From a virus, in the UHGV virus genome UHGV-0042152: a stretch of 27,733 bases of DNA; one strand, 5' to 3'. This document shows positions 4,992 through 13,343 of this stretch, one piece after another. The notes under the pieces were generated by a model. The model searched no databases and had not been told where the DNA came from. It was given only the letters and a program-made list of their open reading frames with translations. Made by a program: the position numbers and the translations under genes. Position 1 is the first letter of the stretch. The number at the start of each line of letters is the position of its first letter.

Positions 4992-5195
4992 ATGAACAAC
5001 AAGACATGGTTTCGTGCATATGCATGGGCGCTGGTATGCGTCCTCGTCTCTCTCATTCTGTATGTAGGGGTACTCCCCCGAATGATTTCATCAGACAGCT
5101 CCTTCCTGGTATTGCTGGGCATTTTCATTGCCATGCTGTACCCGGCAGGCGTTGTTCGCCTTTTCAGTAAGTACATCAAGGAAATCAAACAATGA
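4992..5195 (+). CDS. Small inner-membrane protein (67 aa, two predicted TM helices), partner of SPFH protein
   Basis: Hydrophobic segments WALVCVLVSLILYVGVL and FLVLLGIFIAMLYPAGVV. Stop overlaps the start of the downstream SPFH gene (ATGA at 5192). Confidence 0.5.
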   Translation: MNNKTWFRAYAWALVCVLVSLILYVGVLPRMISSDSSFLVLLGIFIAMLYPAGVVRLFSKYIKEIKQ

Positions 5196-6022
5196 AGAAA
5201 TTCAGACTCTTTCAGATTCTCCCGCTTTTTGCCGCCATCCTGCTGGTTGGCTGCGATCGCGTTGAGCCAGGTAATGTGGGCATCAAAGTCAACAAGCTGG
5301 GCGACGACAAAGGCGTTGGCGAAGTGGTTGGCGTTGGCCGCTACTGGACTGGCTGGAATACCGAGGTTTACATCTTCCCGACCTTCAAACAAATGAAGAC
5401 CTACGATGACCCGTTCAGCTTCCAGATGAGTGACGGCACAACCATCGGCTATCACATCGGCGTGGCCTACAAGGTCGATCCATCCAAAGTTACCACAGTG
5501 TTTCAGACCTACCGCAAAGGCGTGGACGACATTACCGACACTGACCTGCGCCAGAAGATCGCCGACGCACTCAACCGACTGGCCAGCAAAATGACCACAG
5601 ATAAATTCATCGACGGTGGCAAGTCTGAACTGCTGGATTCAGCACTTAAAGATATTCAGGCAGAAATGACACCCATCGGCATTCAGGTAATGAGCCTCTC
5701 TTATGTCGGTAAACCGGAATACCCACCAACCGTGATCGACAGCATTAATGCCAAAGTCACAGCGAACCAGAAAACCCTGCAACGCGAACAGGAAGTAAAA
5801 CAGCGCGAAGCAGAAGCCAACATGTTGCGCGCAGAAGCTGCCGGACAGGCTGATGCCATTCGTACAAAAGCCCAGGCTGAAGCCGACGCCATTCGTTTAC
5901 GCGGTGAAGCTCTGCGCCAGAATCCCGGCGTTATGGAGCTGGAAGCGATTAACAAATGGAACGGCACGCTACCGCAATACATGACCAGTAACACCGCTGT
6001 TCCGTTTGTTCCGGTGAAGTAA
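5192..6022 (+). CDS. SPFH/band-7 (HflK/C-prohibitin-like) domain lipoprotein
   Basis: N-terminal lipoprotein signal with lipobox LLVGC. Central SPFH-like region followed by an Ala/Glu/Arg/Gln-rich coiled-coil tail (QREQEVKQREAEANMLRAEAAGQADAIRTKAQAEADAIRLRGEALRQ) typical of band-7 proteins. Confidence 0.7.
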   Translation: MKKFRLFQILPLFAAILLVGCDRVEPGNVGIKVNKLGDDKGVGEVVGVGRYWTGWNTEVYIFPTFKQMKTYDDPFSFQMSDGTTIGYHIGVAYKVDPSKVTTVFQTYRKGVDDITDTDLRQKIADALNRLASKMTTDKFIDGGKSELLDSALKDIQAEMTPIGIQVMSLSYVGKPEYPPTVIDSINAKVTANQKTLQREQEVKQREAEANMLRAEAAGQADAIRTKAQAEADAIRLRGEALRQNPGVMELEAINKWNGTLPQYMTSNTAVPFVPVK

Positions 6023-7064: not shown

Positions 7065-9887
7065 ATGACGGCAGAGTACATCAGGGACTGGCAACAACCG
7101 CGCCACGCAGTGGGTCGTGAAGGAACGGGAATCCCCGCTCCTGAATCCGAGCTTTCCTCCTGGCTGGATGCCTACCGGGCAGAGAACGAGCGCCGCCAGG
7201 AAATGGCTGATGCGGCGTTCTCCGCCACGCCGCTGGGCAACCTGATTAATAAAAGCCTGGACGCACAGGAAAAACAGGACAAAACCATCACACTGGCCAG
7301 AGAAGCCAGAAAACAGGCACGTGGCGCGGTGGATGAAGCCATGGCCTCGCTGCGCCTGCTGCCGTCCTATCTGCGCGATCCGCTTATTCGCCACCTCTCC
7401 TTCCTGCGCAAAAAACAGGAAGCCGATCGCCGGAAAGGCAAAAAGAGCTGGCAGGCGGAACGCTATGCACGCGGAACCCTGCGCAAAATATTCGAACGTC
7501 TGGATCGCACTGACGGACACTGGCTGACACCGGGTTATCGCTCCCTTGCCGGACGCGAACGCCTGGACGATTTGCTTTACCTGCCGCAGCTCAACAAACA
7601 CCAGATACAGACGCTGGCCACCATGACGGCGGCGATGTTCAGCAGCACCTTCGAAAAACTCTGTGATGGCTTTGGTGCCAGAGATGGCGAGCTGACCATG
7701 GATGTAACGCTGAAGGCGTATCAGATGCTGGCCCGCATGGCGTTACACCTGCACATCATGCCTCCACATTATGACGCACTGACAACAGATAAAGACCGGA
7801 GGAACGAACCGGACACGGAGCTGCTGCCGGGCGCAGTCCTTCGCCTGACCTGTGCGGAATGGTGGAAACGCAAACTGTGGCTGTTACGTTGCGAGTGGAG
7901 AGAAGAACAACTCCGCGCCGCCTGTCTGGTTTCCAGAAAAACATCACCCTATCTGAGCCAGGACGCGTTAAGCGAGTTTCGCGCACAGCGCGAGAAAACA
8001 CGCGATTTCCTGAAAAGTTTCATGCTGGAAAACGAAGACGGGTTCACGATTGATCTCGAGACAGTGTATTACGCGGGAGTAAGTAACCCGGTTCACCGTA
8101 AGGCAGAAATGATGGCCACCATGAAGGGGCTGGAACTTCTGGCCGAAGCCCGTGGCGACAAAGCGGTGTTTCTGACTGTCACCTGCCCGTCAAAATACCA
8201 CGCCACAACAGAGAACGGTCATCCGAATCCCAAATGGAACGGGGCCACCATGCGCGACTCCAGCGATTACCTGGTTAACACGTTTTTTGCGGCGGTCCGC
8301 AAAAAACTGAACCGCGACGGTCTTCGCTGGTATGGCATCCGCACGGTGGAGCCTCACCATGACGGCACCGTGCACTGGCATATGATGGTCTTTGCTCATC
8401 CGGAAGAAATCGACAGCATCGTGGCCATCACCCGCGATATTGCCATTCAGGAAGACCGCCACGAGCTGGGCAATGATATTACTCCGCGCTTTAAGGCGGA
8501 GTATGTCGACGGCTCAAAAGGCACACCAACCAGCTATATCGCGACCTACATCGGAAAGAACCTGGACAGCCGCGCCGTGGATGGCATCGACCCGAAAACG
8601 GGCAAGCCACGCGTTGACCACGAAACCGGAAAATCAATGGCCGAGAGTGTGGAGCGCGCCATCGGCTGGGCGCGCCTTCATCGGGTCCGCCAGTTCCAGT
8701 TCTTTGGCATCCCCCCCCGTCAGGTGTGGCGTGAACTGCGCCGCCTTGCCAGCCAGATGGCACGCAACCCGGAAGGCCCGCAACGACTGAAAGATGACGC
8801 AATGGATGCGGTACTCGCTGCCGCCGATGCCGGGTGTTTTGCCACCTACATTGAAAAACAGGGCGGCGTACTTGTTCCACGCAAAGACTACCTGATTCGC
8901 ACCGCCTACGACCTCGCAGATGAGCTGAATGATTACGGCGAACAGAGCGTACAGATTTACGGGATCTGGTCACCACTCATCGGGGAATCCTCCCGTGTGT
9001 GCACGCATCCGGATAACTGGAAACTGGTAAGACGTAAACCGGAAACGGAAGACAGCGCCCGCGAAAATGGTTTTGACCTTCAGGGCGGCCCTGCCGCCCC
9101 TTGGACTCGTGGCAATAACTGTCCCCGTGTACAGGAAACGGACAACAACGGGACAGAACAGCCGGAAGAACGGCCAGCACCGTGGCCGCAGCTTCCTGAC
9201 GGCGTTGACGTGAACGAATGGATGCGCTCACTGAAACGGCACGAACGCCGGGCGCTGATGCGTTCGCTGCGTGACAAACAGGCAAAAAACAGCAGTGATG
9301 AAATGCAGAGCTGGACACAGAGCCGCAAACAGCAGCGGCCTTTGCCTGATAACCACGAATTACTCGCTAAAGAATGGCGGGAATCTGCCGAATCTCTCGG
9401 CCTGCATATCGGTGAACAGCAGATGCAGCACCTGTTACGGGGCGGCAGCCTGTACGTTGACGGCAGCATCATTGCACCGCAGGGATTTGAAATTGTACGC
9501 AAACCGGATACCCGCCCGGACAGCCGAATCACGCAGCTCTGGCAGCGCCTGAGCCGTAATCACGGCGTAAGCAGCACGGAGATCCGCCATAACCCGGTCG
9601 CCAGCTATCTGGAACAGCTGGGGGCATCAGACCCCGAAGCCGCCGCACGTCTGGCATCCACACTTCAGCAGGACCAGAACACCATGACCCCCCCCGTTAC
9701 CGTGCTTTCTGACATGCTGCGCGCCATCCGCGACGCAGAGCACGCACAGAGAATCAGTGAAACCACTGAACGTGCCCGCCGCAAAGCAGACCTGCTGCGG
9801 GGTGGCCTGACCAGTGGAAACAAAAAACAGACAGAAACGGGATTCACAAATCCCGTAAATGAGCAAAAAACGCGCCGCGATATATGA
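7065..9887 (+). CDS. A: Replication initiation protein gpA (rolling-circle HUH endonuclease)
   Basis: Central region matches P2 gpA (VFLTVTCPSKYH..., VEPHHDGTVHWHMMVF HUH motif, YIATYIGKNLD catalytic-Tyr region). 940 aa versus 761 aa in P2, so the ends are diverged or extended. Confidence 0.9.
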   Translation: MTAEYIRDWQQPRHAVGREGTGIPAPESELSSWLDAYRAENERRQEMADAAFSATPLGNLINKSLDAQEKQDKTITLAREARKQARGAVDEAMASLRLLPSYLRDPLIRHLSFLRKKQEADRRKGKKSWQAERYARGTLRKIFERLDRTDGHWLTPGYRSLAGRERLDDLLYLPQLNKHQIQTLATMTAAMFSSTFEKLCDGFGARDGELTMDVTLKAYQMLARMALHLHIMPPHYDALTTDKDRRNEPDTELLPGAVLRLTCAEWWKRKLWLLRCEWREEQLRAACLVSRKTSPYLSQDALSEFRAQREKTRDFLKSFMLENEDGFTIDLETVYYAGVSNPVHRKAEMMATMKGLELLAEARGDKAVFLTVTCPSKYHATTENGHPNPKWNGATMRDSSDYLVNTFFAAVRKKLNRDGLRWYGIRTVEPHHDGTVHWHMMVFAHPEEIDSIVAITRDIAIQEDRHELGNDITPRFKAEYVDGSKGTPTSYIATYIGKNLDSRAVDGIDPKTGKPRVDHETGKSMAESVERAIGWARLHRVRQFQFFGIPPRQVWRELRRLASQMARNPEGPQRLKDDAMDAVLAAADAGCFATYIEKQGGVLVPRKDYLIRTAYDLADELNDYGEQSVQIYGIWSPLIGESSRVCTHPDNWKLVRRKPETEDSARENGFDLQGGPAAPWTRGNNCPRVQETDNNGTEQPEERPAPWPQLPDGVDVNEWMRSLKRHERRALMRSLRDKQAKNSSDEMQSWTQSRKQQRPLPDNHELLAKEWRESAESLGLHIGEQQMQHLLRGGSLYVDGSIIAPQGFEIVRKPDTRPDSRITQLWQRLSRNHGVSSTEIRHNPVASYLEQLGASDPEAAARLASTLQQDQNTMTPPVTVLSDMLRAIRDAEHAQRISETTERARRKADLLRGGLTSGNKKQTETGFTNPVNEQKTRRDI

Positions 9888-9933
9888 AGCGCACACAAAA
9901 CAGGCAAAAACGGGATTTCAGAATCCCGTAAAC
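9821..9933. repeat. Two ~40-bp imperfect direct repeats, each with an ACGGGATT-N4-AATCCCGT palindrome
   Basis: Copy 1 at 9821-9860 lies inside the last codons of gpA; copy 2 at 9893-9933 lies in the gpA-parM intergenic region. Palindrome cores at 9837-9856 and 9910-9929. Confidence 0.55.
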
Positions 9934-9963: not shown

Positions 9964-10923
9964 ATGAAAATTTGTATCGACGACGGCTCCACCAACATCA
10001 AGCTGGCATGGACTGAGAATGGCGAACGCCGCAACGCCATCAGCCCGAACAGCTTCAAGTCGGAATGGTCTGCGCCGTTCGGTGGCATGCAGCCCGCGAA
10101 CTACATGCTTGATGGCGTGCGCTATGGTTTTGATCCGGTTAGCGATCGCTTTGTCCAGACGACCGACACGCAATACCAGTACAGCGATGTGAATGTAATC
10201 GCCATTCATCACGCGCTGGTCAAATCAGGCATCACGCCACAGGAGGTGGATGTGGTTGTCACCCTGCCACTGAGCGAGTATTTCGACACAAACGCACAGC
10301 CGGACATGGCCAACATCAACCGCAAAAAAGCGAACGTTATGCGCCCGGTGGAGTACCAGAACGGCGAAGCATTCACTATCCGTAACGTGCGGGTTATGCC
10401 TGAATCCATTCCGGCTGGCTTTAAGGCACTGGCTGACATGAGTCCGTTTGAATCCCTGCTGATTGTGGATTTAGGCGGAACCACGCTGGATGTGGCAAAG
10501 GTTCAGGGACAACTGGCAGGTATCAGCCAGGTGCTTTGCGATCCACACGTAGGCGTTTCCCTGATGGCCGATGCCGTACTGTCGGTGATGGCCACTAACG
10601 GTATGCGTACCAGTCACCACATCGCCAATACCATTATCGAACATCGCCATGATGAAGCCTGGCTGCGCCAGCACATCCACAATGACGCGCATTACGCCAG
10701 CCTGATGGCGGTTATTCGTGAAAAGGAAGAAACACTGAAACAACGCGTGATCCGCGCGCTGGCGGGTTTTTCGGGTTACGGGCGGGTGATGGTTGTCGGT
10801 GGCGGGGCAGAGATTGTGGCACCCGCTATCCGCGAAGCCTGCGGAGTTAATGCGACTTTCATCGCGGACGGGGTGCCACAGTTTGCTCTGGTTAATGGGC
10901 TGTACGCAATGGACAAGGAGTAA
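9964..10923 (+). CDS. parM: ParM/StbA-family actin-like segregation ATPase
   Basis: Strong similarity along the whole protein to plasmid R1 ParM as recalled (IDDGSTNIKL, ISPNSFK-EW, QYSDVNV-A-HHAL, VMPESIPAG, DLGGTTLD, GVSL, GGGAE, LVNG-Y). AAGGAAAAG RBS. Confidence 0.85.
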   Translation: MKICIDDGSTNIKLAWTENGERRNAISPNSFKSEWSAPFGGMQPANYMLDGVRYGFDPVSDRFVQTTDTQYQYSDVNVIAIHHALVKSGITPQEVDVVVTLPLSEYFDTNAQPDMANINRKKANVMRPVEYQNGEAFTIRNVRVMPESIPAGFKALADMSPFESLLIVDLGGTTLDVAKVQGQLAGISQVLCDPHVGVSLMADAVLSVMATNGMRTSHHIANTIIEHRHDEAWLRQHIHNDAHYASLMAVIREKEETLKQRVIRALAGFSGYGRVMVVGGGAEIVAPAIREACGVNATFIADGVPQFALVNGLYAMDKE

Positions 10924-10927
10924 ACCA

Positions 10928-11239
10928 ATGACGACACCAACCAGACGGATAAGTTTCTATCTGAAGCCCGCCGCCGTCAAGAACGAAGGCGAAGCATGCG
11001 CCTGGCTGGACAGCCTTACACCAGAAGCCCGCAAAAGTGGTCAACGCGTGGCTTTTCTGGCCGGGCTGGCACTACTGAAAATGAATCCGGCAGAGGCTTA
11101 CCGACTGGCTGCATGGGCTGATGATGAGGCGTTATCAATGACACAAACCAGGACAGAACGCCCCGCGTCACAGCCAGTATCAGCCGCACAGATAACCAGT
11201 CAGATGGCCGGAAATATCCGGGCGTTATTTCCCGAATAA
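10928..11239 (+). CDS. parR: ParR-like adaptor/centromere-binding protein (putative)
   Basis: Directly downstream of parM with an AAGGAG RBS. N-terminal region (RRISFYLKP...RVAFLAGLALLKMNP) resembles the R1 ParR N-terminus as recalled. Size is appropriate. Confidence 0.55.
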   Translation: MTTPTRRISFYLKPAAVKNEGEACAWLDSLTPEARKSGQRVAFLAGLALLKMNPAEAYRLAAWADDEALSMTQTRTERPASQPVSAAQITSQMAGNIRALFPE

Positions 11240-11244
11240 CACAA

Positions 11245-11268
11245 CATCAGGGCGCATCCGCCCTGATG
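11245..11268 (+). other. Perfect 10-bp-arm palindrome (CATCAGGGCG-CATC-CGCCCTGATG) just after the parR stop
   Basis: Read directly in the sequence. No U-tract follows, so more likely a protein-binding or RNA-processing site than an intrinsic terminator. Confidence 0.4.
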
Positions 11269-11302
11269 ACTTTAACCCGGGAGCATAAACAAGGGGGACA
11301 CA

Positions 11303-11635
11303 ATGCAACACATTGACAGAGAAAAAGCGCAGCGACTGATTGAGCGGATGGAAGCGCTGGCGAAAGAAGAAAATGTCAACATCCAAAAAATAGCTGAATG
11401 TGGCCAGATAGTTCTTCGTCGTGAAAAAGACCTCAAACAACTGATGTCTGGCGAAACCAGCAAAACATGGACTTCAGGCGAGAAGACGGTTTATTGCAGC
11501 TTCTGCAATAAATCCCAGTACGAAGTCACAAAGGTGATTGCCGGACCGTCTGTTTACATCTGCAATGAGTGCGTGGATTTGTGCAATGAAATTATCAGGA
11601 AAGAAGTGACAGACAAAAAGGAAAAAAACGCATGA
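11303..11635 (+). CDS. Stand-alone ClpX-type C4 zinc-binding domain protein (110 aa)
   Basis: C-terminal half [38 protein letters not shown] is near-identical in pattern to the N-terminal zinc-binding domain of ClpX (C-x2-C...C-x2-C). No AAA+ module follows. The N-terminal ~55 aa are coiled-coil-like. AGGGGGA RBS. Confidence 0.7.
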
Positions 11636-11946
11636 ACAGAAAACAGAAACAAGAGTTGAAATACTTCTTACGTAAAGAAATTGCCAGGCTTGAAGATGCA
11701 GAGTCACAATCATCAGAAATTCCGTTCGGAATGGATATCAACGACGCCCGTATGCTCCAGGCATACCGCATAGCTCAGGCTGCACTACAGGCAAAACCGT
11801 CAGATGGACTGGTTAGAGCGGTGCGTTTCTATGAACAGGTAAAGCGTGAGAATCCGCCAGTCGAAACCGGAGCATGGAAAGACGCTGTTGACTGGGTGCT
11901 CAAAGAGGCTTACCAGGCTGTAAACATTGGTACCAAAGGAGATTGA
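11632..11946 (+). CDS. Hypothetical protein (104 aa)
   Basis: Translationally coupled to the upstream gene (ATGA overlap at 11632). No motif recognised. Confidence 0.5.
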
Positions 11947-12653: not shown

Positions 12654-12686
12654 GGACCCAGCAAATATACACAACCTATAAAACAC

Positions 12687-12714
12687 TAAAGCGCCTCAGG
12701 GGCGCTTTTTGTTT
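12687..12714 (+). terminator. Rho-independent terminator ending the parM-to-small-ORF operon
   Basis: AAGCGCC-TCAG-GGGCGCTT hairpin followed by TTTTTGTTT. Confidence 0.65.
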
Positions 12715-12817
12715 GCACAAAAGTGCACAAATTTGCACAATTTTTTTGAACGACTTTTTACCCTTCCGGCCCGCATGGCGGCTGGATCCGTCAAGGATCC
12801 GTGCGTGCACAAAAAAA
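12711..12817. promoter_or_regulatory. Repeat-rich non-coding region (phased TGCACAA repeats and duplicated GGATCCGT)
   Basis: TGCACAA at 12714, 12724, 12734 (10-bp phasing) and again at 12807. GGATCCGT at 12784 and 12795 (11-bp spacing). Function unknown. Confidence 0.35.
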
Positions 12818-13104
12818 CGCGCTTTTTCTGCGCGCAGGTGACGGGGGAACAGCCCGCGTTTCAGGGGGTAAATAGCATTCCCTGAACGATGTCGCAGAGA
12901 CACAACAGAATGGCCATATTTCTCACGCTGAGCATGAAAAAGGCGTGAGGGCTTTTGATTTGATGGGGTGAAAGGTAAGGCCGTCAAAATCGCACTGAGG
13001 CAGCGAGAACATGCAGTCAACGCGGTGGAATTGCGTAAGAGTCTGACCGTCGATGGTGGCGATAAACTGGAAGGCGTCGTGAAATTATCTGATTGATACA
13101 GGAG

Positions 13105-13236
13105 NNNNNNNNNNNNNNNNNNNNNNNNNNNNNNNNNNNNNNNNNNNNNNNNNNNNNNNNNNNNNNNNNNNNNNNNNNNNNNNNNNNNNNNNNNNNNNNN
13201 NNNNNNNNNNNNNNNNNNNNNNNNNNNNNNNNNNNN
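13105..13236. other. Run of N (masked or unsequenced, 132 nt)
   Basis: Literal n characters in the sequence. Confidence 1.
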
Positions 13237-13343
13237 GGCGGGGCGAAGCAGCAGACAAGCGAAGCGCGTCAGCGATACGGCACCTTGCCGACCATACTTC
13301 ATAAGTGCAAAATACGAGCAAAGAAATCAATGGAGGCTGTCTT

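Follow-up and report, generated by a model that had tools for sequence, protein, structure and literature searches.

The N-terminal domain (N-domain) of ClpX dimerises by itself and is flexibly tethered to the rest of the protein. It docks lambda O, MuA, UmuD', FtsZ and unfolded MqsA as well as the adaptors SspB and RssB and trigger factor, and it is required for the degradation of lambda O and dispensable for that of ssrA substrates (PMC7804408, PMC8808172, PMC5415555, PMC12383707). The exchanges L12S, L13A/D and H23A in ClpX weaken binding at the MqsA/SspB site (PMC8808172), the trigger-factor effect requires F16 and I46 (Houry-lab numbering), which overlap with the lambda O site (PMC7804408), and the recognition of MuA needs the N-domain as well (PMC5415555, PMC8808172). 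Here we describe a phage gene which is predicted to encode a stand-alone copy of this zinc-binding domain (ZBD) without the motor of ClpX. It is found at positions 11303..11635 on the plus strand of the virus genome UHGV-0042152; the window, by which we mean the whole stretch of DNA that was analysed, comprises 27,733 nucleotides. The reading frame is intact, from the ATG at 11303 to the TGA ending at 11635, and codes for 110 amino acids plus the stop, in line with the list of open reading frames (ORFs), a full-length match to phrog_6797 and the RefSeq name.

Several small phage proteins inhibit, or are proposed to inhibit, host proteases, with Lon as the target of PinA and gp4.5 and ClpP as that of RexB, and these inhibitors are thought to spare antitoxins during infection (PMC10286901). 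The gpA-gpQ (portal) interval of P2-like phages is reported, in the parts of Rousset et al. 2022 (PMC9122126) used here, as a hotspot of anti-phage systems which also holds non-defence cargo, e.g. partition systems and toxins. CmdTAC/PD-T4-9 is a ClpXP-dependent defence module in the P2 hotspot, and its defence is lost in a clpX deletion (bioRxiv 10.1101/2024.02.24.581848). The CmdTAC antitoxin is recognised via a C-terminal Ala-Ala motif and may therefore be independent of the N-domain.

All sequence and fold tests applied place a member of the ClpX ZBD family in the predicted protein. The Pfam model zf-C4_ClpX (Pfam: PF06689) matches residues 64-99 with 64.7 bits (E-value 6.8e-18, profile positions 2-38 of 39), the gathering cutoff of the model being 27 bits, and a phmmer search against all PDB chains retrieved ClpX entries only, with the E. 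coli ZBD (PDB: 1OVX) as the best hit (E-value 6.9e-20). Residues 63-101 align without gaps to residues 13-51 of E. coli ClpX and 31 of these 39 positions are identical. The zinc ligands C65, C68, C87 and C90 (codons at 11495-11497, 11504-11506, 11561-11563 and 11570-11572, plus strand) align to C15, C18, C37 and C40 of ClpX with the spacing CxxC-18-CxxC, and all four cysteines are invariant in the 19 distinct cores of the family. An AlphaFold2 (AF2) model, which is a prediction and not an experimental structure, was built from 12 family sequences and has a mean predicted local distance difference test score (pLDDT) of 81.6. Its C-terminal part forms a treble-clef domain with a C-terminal helix, which Foldseek superposes on the ClpX structures 2DS5, 2DS6 and 2DS8, the root mean square deviation (RMSD) being 0.6-1.0 Å, the target TM-score 0.87-0.92 and the identity 76-79%; for 2DS5 the RMSD is 0.7 Å at 78% identity. 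The original prediction, made from the letters alone, had called the ORF with its exact limits and a near-copy of the ClpX ZBD at its C-terminus, and had proposed to align the cysteines with the domain profile and to model the structure; the Pfam score, the core identity, the alignment of all four ligands and the superposition of the model agree with it, as does the literature with its statement that the ClpX domain dimerises and docks SspB, lambda O and MuA (PMC7804408, PMC8808172, PMC5415555, PMC12383707).

The protein is nevertheless not ClpX, as it lacks the motor, stays below the equivalog cutoff and has its domains in reverse order. The clpX equivalog models of NCBIfam (TIGR00382 / NF003745) give 51 bits with only profile positions 6-54 of 414 matched, compared to an equivalog cutoff of 370.75 bits. 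No AAA+ match was found in the flanking ORFs either, and the ORFs downstream of the ZBD gene are without any Pfam match, so that the absence of an AAA+ ATPase had been recognised correctly beforehand. The ZBD is positioned at the C-terminus (residues 62-101 of 110), whereas ClpX carries it N-terminally, before the motor.

The alignment indicates that the docking surface of ClpX is largely preserved, not entirely. The hydrophobic-patch residues F17, I47 and I48 (ClpX numbering) are retained and so is the dimer-forming helix. Within the cores of the family, L13 is represented by L, I or V, H23 by H or Y, and L12 mostly by T. For a comparison per position with 'ClpX-type' N-domains, the comparison set was biased, since its members had been picked by similarity to the query, and its use was restricted to the core residues and to how far Y14 and H23 are conserved.

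The ZBD core (residues 62-101, 11486..11605, plus strand) is preceded by an N-terminal module, the N-module (residues 1-48, 11303..11446, plus strand), and a flexible linker (residues 49-61, 11447..11485, plus strand). According to the AF2 model, the N-module is a hairpin of two helices, H6-22 and H27-48, with a pLDDT of 84-94. The linker is predicted to be disordered, with a pLDDT below 50 at residues 53-59, and varies in length and sequence across the family; the Salmonella member P0019 has an insertion of 11 residues there. The original prediction had described an unrelated coiled-coil N-terminus, of which 'unrelated' and helical hold, while the coiled coil gives way to the predicted two-helix hairpin and the disordered linker behind it. 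A profile of the N-module searched against 1.84e9 representative proteins returned 18 matches, which are the same family, truncated copies, and coiled-coil noise in very long proteins. A word-indexed search likewise gave the same family or noise only, the profile search found no similarity in the PDB, no Pfam match was obtained at E <= 1, and the N-module of the very divergent member P0134 had no match among species-representative genomes. Taken from these searches and the model, the N-module is a predicted helical hairpin specific to the family. Cys33 (11399-11401) in its second helix is near-invariant: it is conserved throughout a 9-sequence alignment of diverged members, with Y only in P0006, and may have a structural, redox or metal role.

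The two modules differ in how they have diverged. In members whose N-modules are only 24-40% identical to that of the window protein, the ZBD cores are mostly 75-88% identical to E. coli ClpX, and the ZBDs of the family are often nearer to ClpX than to one another. P0019 is an example, with 26% identity to the window protein in the N-module and 80% in the ZBD, which in turn is 88% identical to ClpX; exceptions are P0132 and P0128, whose ZBDs are 65% and 55% identical to ClpX. Different codons are used at 20 of the 32 positions that agree with ClpX, two of these being switches between serine codon families, and the synonymous divergence (dS) from clpX is saturated according to the Nei-Gojobori method. 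Since the synonymous sites are saturated, the domain was captured long ago and not recently. Across 5,426 E. coli genomes, a blastn search with word size 11 found no link between the ZBD gene and chromosomal clpX. The readings as a truncated clpX pseudogene and as a recent capture are ruled out by the C-terminal position of the ZBD, the lack of a clpX DNA match, the saturated dS and the widespread intact homologues. The ratio of non-synonymous to synonymous divergence (dN/dS) between alleles is mostly 0.1-0.7 with a few pairs near 1, where the close-allele values rest on few substitutions, are noisy and are too few to separate the two modules. The ZBD gene is a real, selectively maintained phage accessory gene. 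The conservation pattern is as would be expected if the ZBD must keep doing something ClpX-like, and is supportive of this, not decisive.

A ZBD copy without an AAA+ motor most likely acts in trans as a mimic of the docking platform, and the sequence evidence suggests that the protein probably interferes with the choice of proteins that are degraded by ClpXP. From the domain identity, the architecture, the conservation and the position of the gene we infer the binding partners, the inhibition, the timing of expression and the beneficiary as follows. As a decoy or anti-adaptor, which is the reading we tentatively prefer at somewhat less than an even chance, the protein would bind N-domain clients, or the adaptors delivering them, and withhold both from ClpXP. 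Substrates that depend on the N-domain would then be selectively stabilised, and ssrA-type degradation would be mostly unaffected apart from its enhancement by SspB. The hairpin of the N-module might provide oligomerisation for avidity, or bind a specific target. Expression together with early lytic or plasmid-maintenance genes is probable, because the gene is co-directional with the string from Cox to gpA and no strong sigma-70 promoter is predicted in front of it, and the role could be one in host takeover or against abortive responses, similar to what T4 PinA and T7 gp4.5 do with Lon. Constraint on the ClpX-like part, while the N-module diverges to about 25% identity, fits such a decoy. The isolated ZBD is also said to hold the primary binding site for lambda O and SspB and, when added in trans, reportedly inhibits the degradation of lambda O and MuA.

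A lead, not a finding, comes from the neighbourhood of Phd/Doc toxin-antitoxin genes. Behind the ZBD gene of E. coli BCE049, and convergent with it, lie the genes of a Doc toxin and of a long antitoxin of the Phd/YefM type. For the very divergent member P0134 (contig L009; L083, a distant P2-like phage), Doc-Phd is found directly upstream, beside a ParR remnant. Between these two types of loci the Docs are 57%, the antitoxins 28% and the ZBD proteins about 37% identical, and the differing gene order points to two separate juxtapositions of co-diverged genes, i.e. two independent events. The triple arrangement of ZBD gene, Phd and Doc is present in 18 of the about 112 E. coli genomes with the chromosomal gene. 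P1 Phd is the classical antitoxin degraded by ClpXP (Lehnherr and Yarmolinsky 1995, as cited in PMC10286901), and for this reason a mimic of the ClpX N-domain beside Phd/Doc is suggestive. A query with Doc in species-representative genomes found only two loci, neither with a ZBD gene. The Doc gene with the unusually long antitoxin (113-132 amino acids, with a conserved C-terminal extension; L015 3503-4254, L083 3825-4630, and 5654-6402 in both L098 and L099) is in itself a recurrent cargo of the gpA-portal hotspot of P2-like elements in Escherichia, Citrobacter and Klebsiella.

A number of points weigh against the decoy and against its link to Phd/Doc. The conservation of the N-module is unexplained by a plain decoy. 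Single contacts between a ZBD and a peptide have low (micromolar) affinity, and a simple decoy would therefore have to be strongly expressed or to gain avidity. At positions of the ClpX docking site the window protein carries L12->T, L13->V and H23->Y, and part of the docking pocket may thus be retuned; T presumably occurs at the L12 position of Caulobacter ClpX too. The same ZBD pattern would also result from a star phylogeny whose ancestor evolves slowly. D6-type and P0128-type members have changed residues in the helix and loop (L43->A or D; IAGPSVY->ITGEGVC), so identical partners for all members are impossible. Most ZBD loci are without Phd/Doc and the adjacency is facultative. Loci with the same Doc/Phd family but no ZBD gene were observed in the P2 hotspot of Citrobacter youngae and of a Klebsiella species as well as in at least one E. 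coli strain (H94), and the adjacency may reflect shared hotspot tenancy. Furthermore, full-text literature searches found no paper studying a stand-alone phage ClpX ZBD protein.

Among the other explanations, a decaying or neutral passenger gene is very unlikely. There are truncated or frameshifted database copies (P0010, P0017, P0018, P0024 and P0121), and the dN/dS values are noisy with a few close-allele pairs approaching 1, but intact copies with both modules are found across N-modules of 24-40% identity, on several phage backbones and in at least two host genera; moreover the gene has a strong Shine-Dalgarno sequence and a ZBD core conserved despite the saturated synonymous divergence from clpX. 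The poisoning of ClpX hexamers, which the original prediction had named together with the decoy, is a separate mechanism and belongs to the main rival reading: the phage ZBD would pair with the ZBD of a ClpX protomer, in place of or in addition to pairing with itself, break the trimer of dimers and tether the hairpin, together with anything bound to it, to the ring, with the outcome that the function of the N-domain is blocked or that new substrates are delivered by what would be a virus-supplied adaptor. The dimer-forming elements (beta-hairpins and C-terminal helix; PMC5890618) are almost unchanged in the P88-type protein relative to ClpX (VYICDECVDLCNDII), a conserved second module on a flexible linker is what an adaptor needs, and the closeness of each lineage to the host ClpX would be expected if the partner is ClpX. 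We still regard such a hetero-dimer as unlikely, given that the dimer of the ClpX ZBD is described as constitutive and very stable (Wojtyra 2003, cited in PMC7804408 and PMC12383707), so that exchange with pre-existing ClpX may be slow, and that D6-type members alter helix positions such as L43.

Improbable, too, is a regulator independent of ClpX, in which the ZBD would be a zinc-stabilised dimer scaffold and the N-module would bring the specificity, e.g. an anti-sigma factor or anti-repressor like CsfB of B. subtilis, or an accessory factor of ParR or the early operon. CsfB has a dimeric ClpX-like treble clef that serves an unrelated anti-sigma job (PMC5890618), the N-module shows both conservation and restriction to the family, each of three diverged ZBD variants (100%, 51% and 37% identical to the window protein) is positioned directly after parR, and some ZBD surfaces have diverged (P0128, 55% identical to ClpX). 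CsfB, however, is only about 20% identical to ClpX with a poorly conserved surface (PMC5890618), whereas surface and core of the phage ZBD are 75-88% ClpX-like in most members despite saturated synonymous sites, which scaffold constraint alone explains poorly; in addition, ParM and ParR (ParMR) are absent from most lineages and from the P1/D6 contexts. Finally, the decoy chemistry could be the same and the lysogen the beneficiary, if the protein blocks superinfecting phages which need the ClpX N-domain, e.g. Mu-like ones. Mu depends on the remodelling of the MuA transpososome by ClpX. The N-domain is needed to recognise MuA (PMC5415555, PMC8808172), and the gene is located in the gpA-gpQ anti-phage hotspot and present in a table of the study describing it, as far as that source was consulted (PMC9122126). 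Such an exclusion factor is nonetheless quite unlikely: there is no PADLOC match, cargo other than defence systems is found in the hotspot too, the gene runs in the direction of the early lytic operon and no separate promoter is predicted for it, and in P1/D6-like elements it is found among Ea22-type early genes.

Returning to the decoy, the observations could be joined into a wider scenario which we hold to be unlikely as a whole. P2-like phages, P1/D6-like phages and, independently, a T4-like phage of Caulobacter would have captured the ClpX docking domain and kept it host-like; the protein would reprogramme ClpXP during induction, by sequestering adaptors and clients or by forming a heterodimer with ClpX that carries the viral hairpin to the ring, and would gate the neighbouring Phd/Doc, with its ClpXP-degraded antitoxin, in some prophages. 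If this were true, a viral regulator of the 'domain-mimic' kind would be described for a bacterial AAA+ protease for the first time.

The window is a prophage of the P88-like, P2-family type (Xuanwuvirus), with 98-99% identity to P88-like Xuanwuvirus phages over the region. This, together with the integrase, CI-like repressor, Cox, gpA, portal and terminase genes, supports the earlier statement that the ZBD protein is prophage-encoded. The integrase (50-1057) and the CI-like helix-turn-helix repressor (1112-1507) are on the minus strand. After the repressor, the genes follow in the order Cox-like, DUF4761, SPFH/Band_7, Ash-like, gpA, ParM, ParR/StbB-like, ZBD gene and three small ORFs of the Ea22-region type. 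The SPFH/Band_7 protein (5192-6022, 276 amino acids, Pfam 107 bits) is part of the early operon, and the related locus L007 has its gene as well. gpA, the protein for replication (7065-9887), belongs to the string that is co-directional with the ZBD gene. The direct 5' neighbours on the plus strand are parM (9964-10923; Pfam StbA_N/ParM_N) and the parR/StbB-like gene (10928-11239; Pfam Plasmid_stab_B). Two near-identical hairpins with 8-bp stems, ACGGGATT...AATCCCGT, are found at 9837-9856 and 9910-9929 just 5' of parM, and are plausibly the parC-like centromere or operator repeats for ParMR.

The ZBD gene has a strong Shine-Dalgarno sequence, AAGGGGGA (11291..11298, plus strand), 4 nucleotides 5' of its ATG, as read from the sequence. 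A scan directly 5' of the gene for sigma-70 promoters stayed at chance level and gave no convincing one, and no promoter is conserved between lineages in the sequence 5' of the gene, where the upstream region itself is not conserved. Between parR and the ZBD gene there is a perfect 10-bp GC-rich hairpin without a U-tract (11245..11268, plus strand; delta G -27 kcal/mol, z = -4.6), which is possibly an attenuator or an RNA-stability element. The stop codon of the ZBD gene overlaps (ATGA) with an ORF of 104 amino acids (11632..11946, plus strand) of the Ea22-region type (phrog_26213/660). A bidirectional, intrinsic-terminator-like hairpin at 12688..12708 closes the string Cox ... gpA-parM-parR-ZBD-orf104-orf146-orf87, in which the ZBD gene is among the last co-directional genes, and portal and terminase lie beyond it on the opposite strand. 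A run of 131 N (13106-13236), which is masked or unsequenced, separates the accessory string from the portal gene at about the position expected for a P2-type cos region; ORFs crossing this run, e.g. 12676-13302 on the minus strand, are artefacts.

The context survey covered the window, P88, D6, nine assembly loci, three E. coli chromosomes and 80 IMG/VR loci. In the P2-like prophages surveyed, the ZBD gene is always found between gpA and ogr/portal and co-directional with gpA, and in the P1/D6-like elements within a run of lambdoid early genes of the Ea22/DUF4752 type. ParM and ParR are positioned 5' of the ZBD gene in the P88 type as well as in L080 and L084, two diverged variants with ZBD proteins of 51% and 37% identity. 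Compared with the window, these two variants show a mosaic gradient, with 97-99% identity in ParM, 82% and 56% in ParR, and 51% and 37% in the ZBD protein, suggesting a recombination breakpoint in or just before parR and a joint replacement of ParR and the ZBD gene. About a quarter of the P2-like phages carry ParMR in the gpA-portal slot, according to the part of that study drawn on here (PMC9122126), and the association with the ZBD gene is therefore unremarkable. ParMR are absent from at least seven of the about 11 P2-type lineages with the ZBD gene (L004/L005 from Salmonella, L007, L010, L053, L082 and L093) and from the P1/D6 contexts, and the protection of partition proteins that the original prediction had offered as one benefit of the decoy is not supported. 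The downstream ORF of 104 amino acids is swapped for other genes in L004-L007, L010, L015 and L016. An obligatory partner gene is thus ruled out, as both the ATGA-overlapping ORF and ParMR are replaced in many lineages.

Table S5A of Rousset et al. contains exactly this arrangement, as 'StbA + Plasmid_stab_B + zf-C4_ClpX + hypothetical x3', and the main text, in the passages searched, mentions partition systems and not the zinc-finger gene (PMC9122126). Nor is the gene tested or discussed in the passages of main text and supplement that were searched (PMC9122126). PADLOC-DB v2 gave no match for the ZBD protein or its five neighbours, which rules out a known defence system.

The family is already recognised, and the protein is not the 'orphan' it had been called. 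It matches phrog_6797, a family of unknown function, with an E-value of 2.1e-58 (residues 1-106, profile positions 5-107 of 107), and the present RefSeq name is 'ClpX C4-type zinc finger protein'. An older GenBank/RefSeq name, 'carboxylate--amine ligase' (P88 NC_026014 gp19, D6 NC_050154 gp034 and many nr entries), has no support from domain searches and appears to be a propagated annotation error. Gene and domain are already annotated and catalogued, so the observation itself is not new; novelty would lie in the mechanism, by which a virus encodes a mimic of the docking domain that the protease itself uses. A near-full-length copy is present in 112 of the 5,426 complete E. coli genomes (about 2%), and about 110 further genomes of this set carry a variant with about 50% protein identity on P1/D6-like plasmids of roughly 90-110 kb. 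Members were found in Escherichia, Salmonella and uncultured sources, all with the same plan of helical hairpin, variable linker and ZBD. The IMG/VR matches to the ZBD only (L085-L097) were considered as mini-proteins and rejected, as they are mostly full-length clpX genes.

Besides this family, other motor-less ZBD proteins were observed. Caulobacter phage Cr30 has a stand-alone ZBD ORF of up to 79 amino acids with a TTG start (L012 1480-1719), translation of which may really begin at an internal Met; in the deposited record the match is divided between gp169 and gp170, and the ORF is not annotated as such. Its sequence appears to resemble that of Caulobacter ClpX, and the occurrence in an unrelated phage hints at recurrent domain capture. 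An IMG/VR contig (L094 2400-3311) encodes a protein of 303 amino acids with a C-terminal ClpX-type ZBD and a different N-terminal region, ParB-like by eye. P0098, P0094, P0108 and P0117 form a separate family of about 136-190 amino acids with an N-terminal ClpX-type ZBD and a non-AAA+ C-terminal region, which is probably actinobacterial, judged by composition. Motor-less ZBD proteins thus also occur in cellular genomes.

ClpXP controls RpoS, proteins of SOS mutagenesis and of cell division, several antitoxins, lambda O and MuA, and access to many of these is via the N-domain. If the decoy reading is true, the ZBD protein would be a natural selective inhibitor or re-router of N-domain-dependent proteolysis, would add docking-domain mimicry to the few ways in which phages are known to counter host proteases, and could explain how some prophages silence protease-triggered toxin-antitoxin modules. 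Without any connection to ClpX, it would be one more small annotated hotspot gene of unknown function.

By the sequence searches made, the ZBD protein belongs to no described inhibitor or anti-adaptor family, nor to a PADLOC family; for PinA, gp4.5, RexB and IraD/M/P there was no Pfam or NCBIfam match at E <= 1, the coverage of each of these families in the libraries being unchecked. T4 PinA, T7 gp4.5 and lambda RexB are likewise small phage accessory proteins and represent the class proposed for the ZBD protein (PMC10286901), but they are unrelated to it in sequence and none of them copies a domain of its target protease. IraD, IraM and IraP are small and block the delivery of RpoS via RssB to ClpXP while leaving the motor untouched, which is the step at which the proposed decoy would act; unlike it, they bind RssB via folds unrelated to the ZBD. 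The cargo of the P2 gpA-gpQ interval (old, tin, retrons, PARIS-type systems and ParMR), as listed in the part of Rousset et al. 2022 consulted (PMC9122126), shares the genomic slot with the ZBD gene, but the protein differs from the defence cargo in matching no PADLOC defence model. CsfB (Gin) is small and stand-alone as well, and is the only other known dimeric treble-clef zinc finger like the N-terminal domain of ClpX; it is, however, about 20% identical to ClpX, with another interface chemistry and no link to ClpX function (PMC5890618), compared to about 78% for the phage protein. The closest relative is the ZBD of ClpX itself, with which the phage copy has in common the C4 treble clef, the CxxC-18-CxxC spacing, 31 of 39 core residues, F17, I47 and I48 and the dimer helix. 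It differs from it in being phage-borne, motor-less and C-terminal, behind an unrelated hairpin, and in its substitutions at L12 (T), H23 (Y), G19, R26, D38, D46 and E50.

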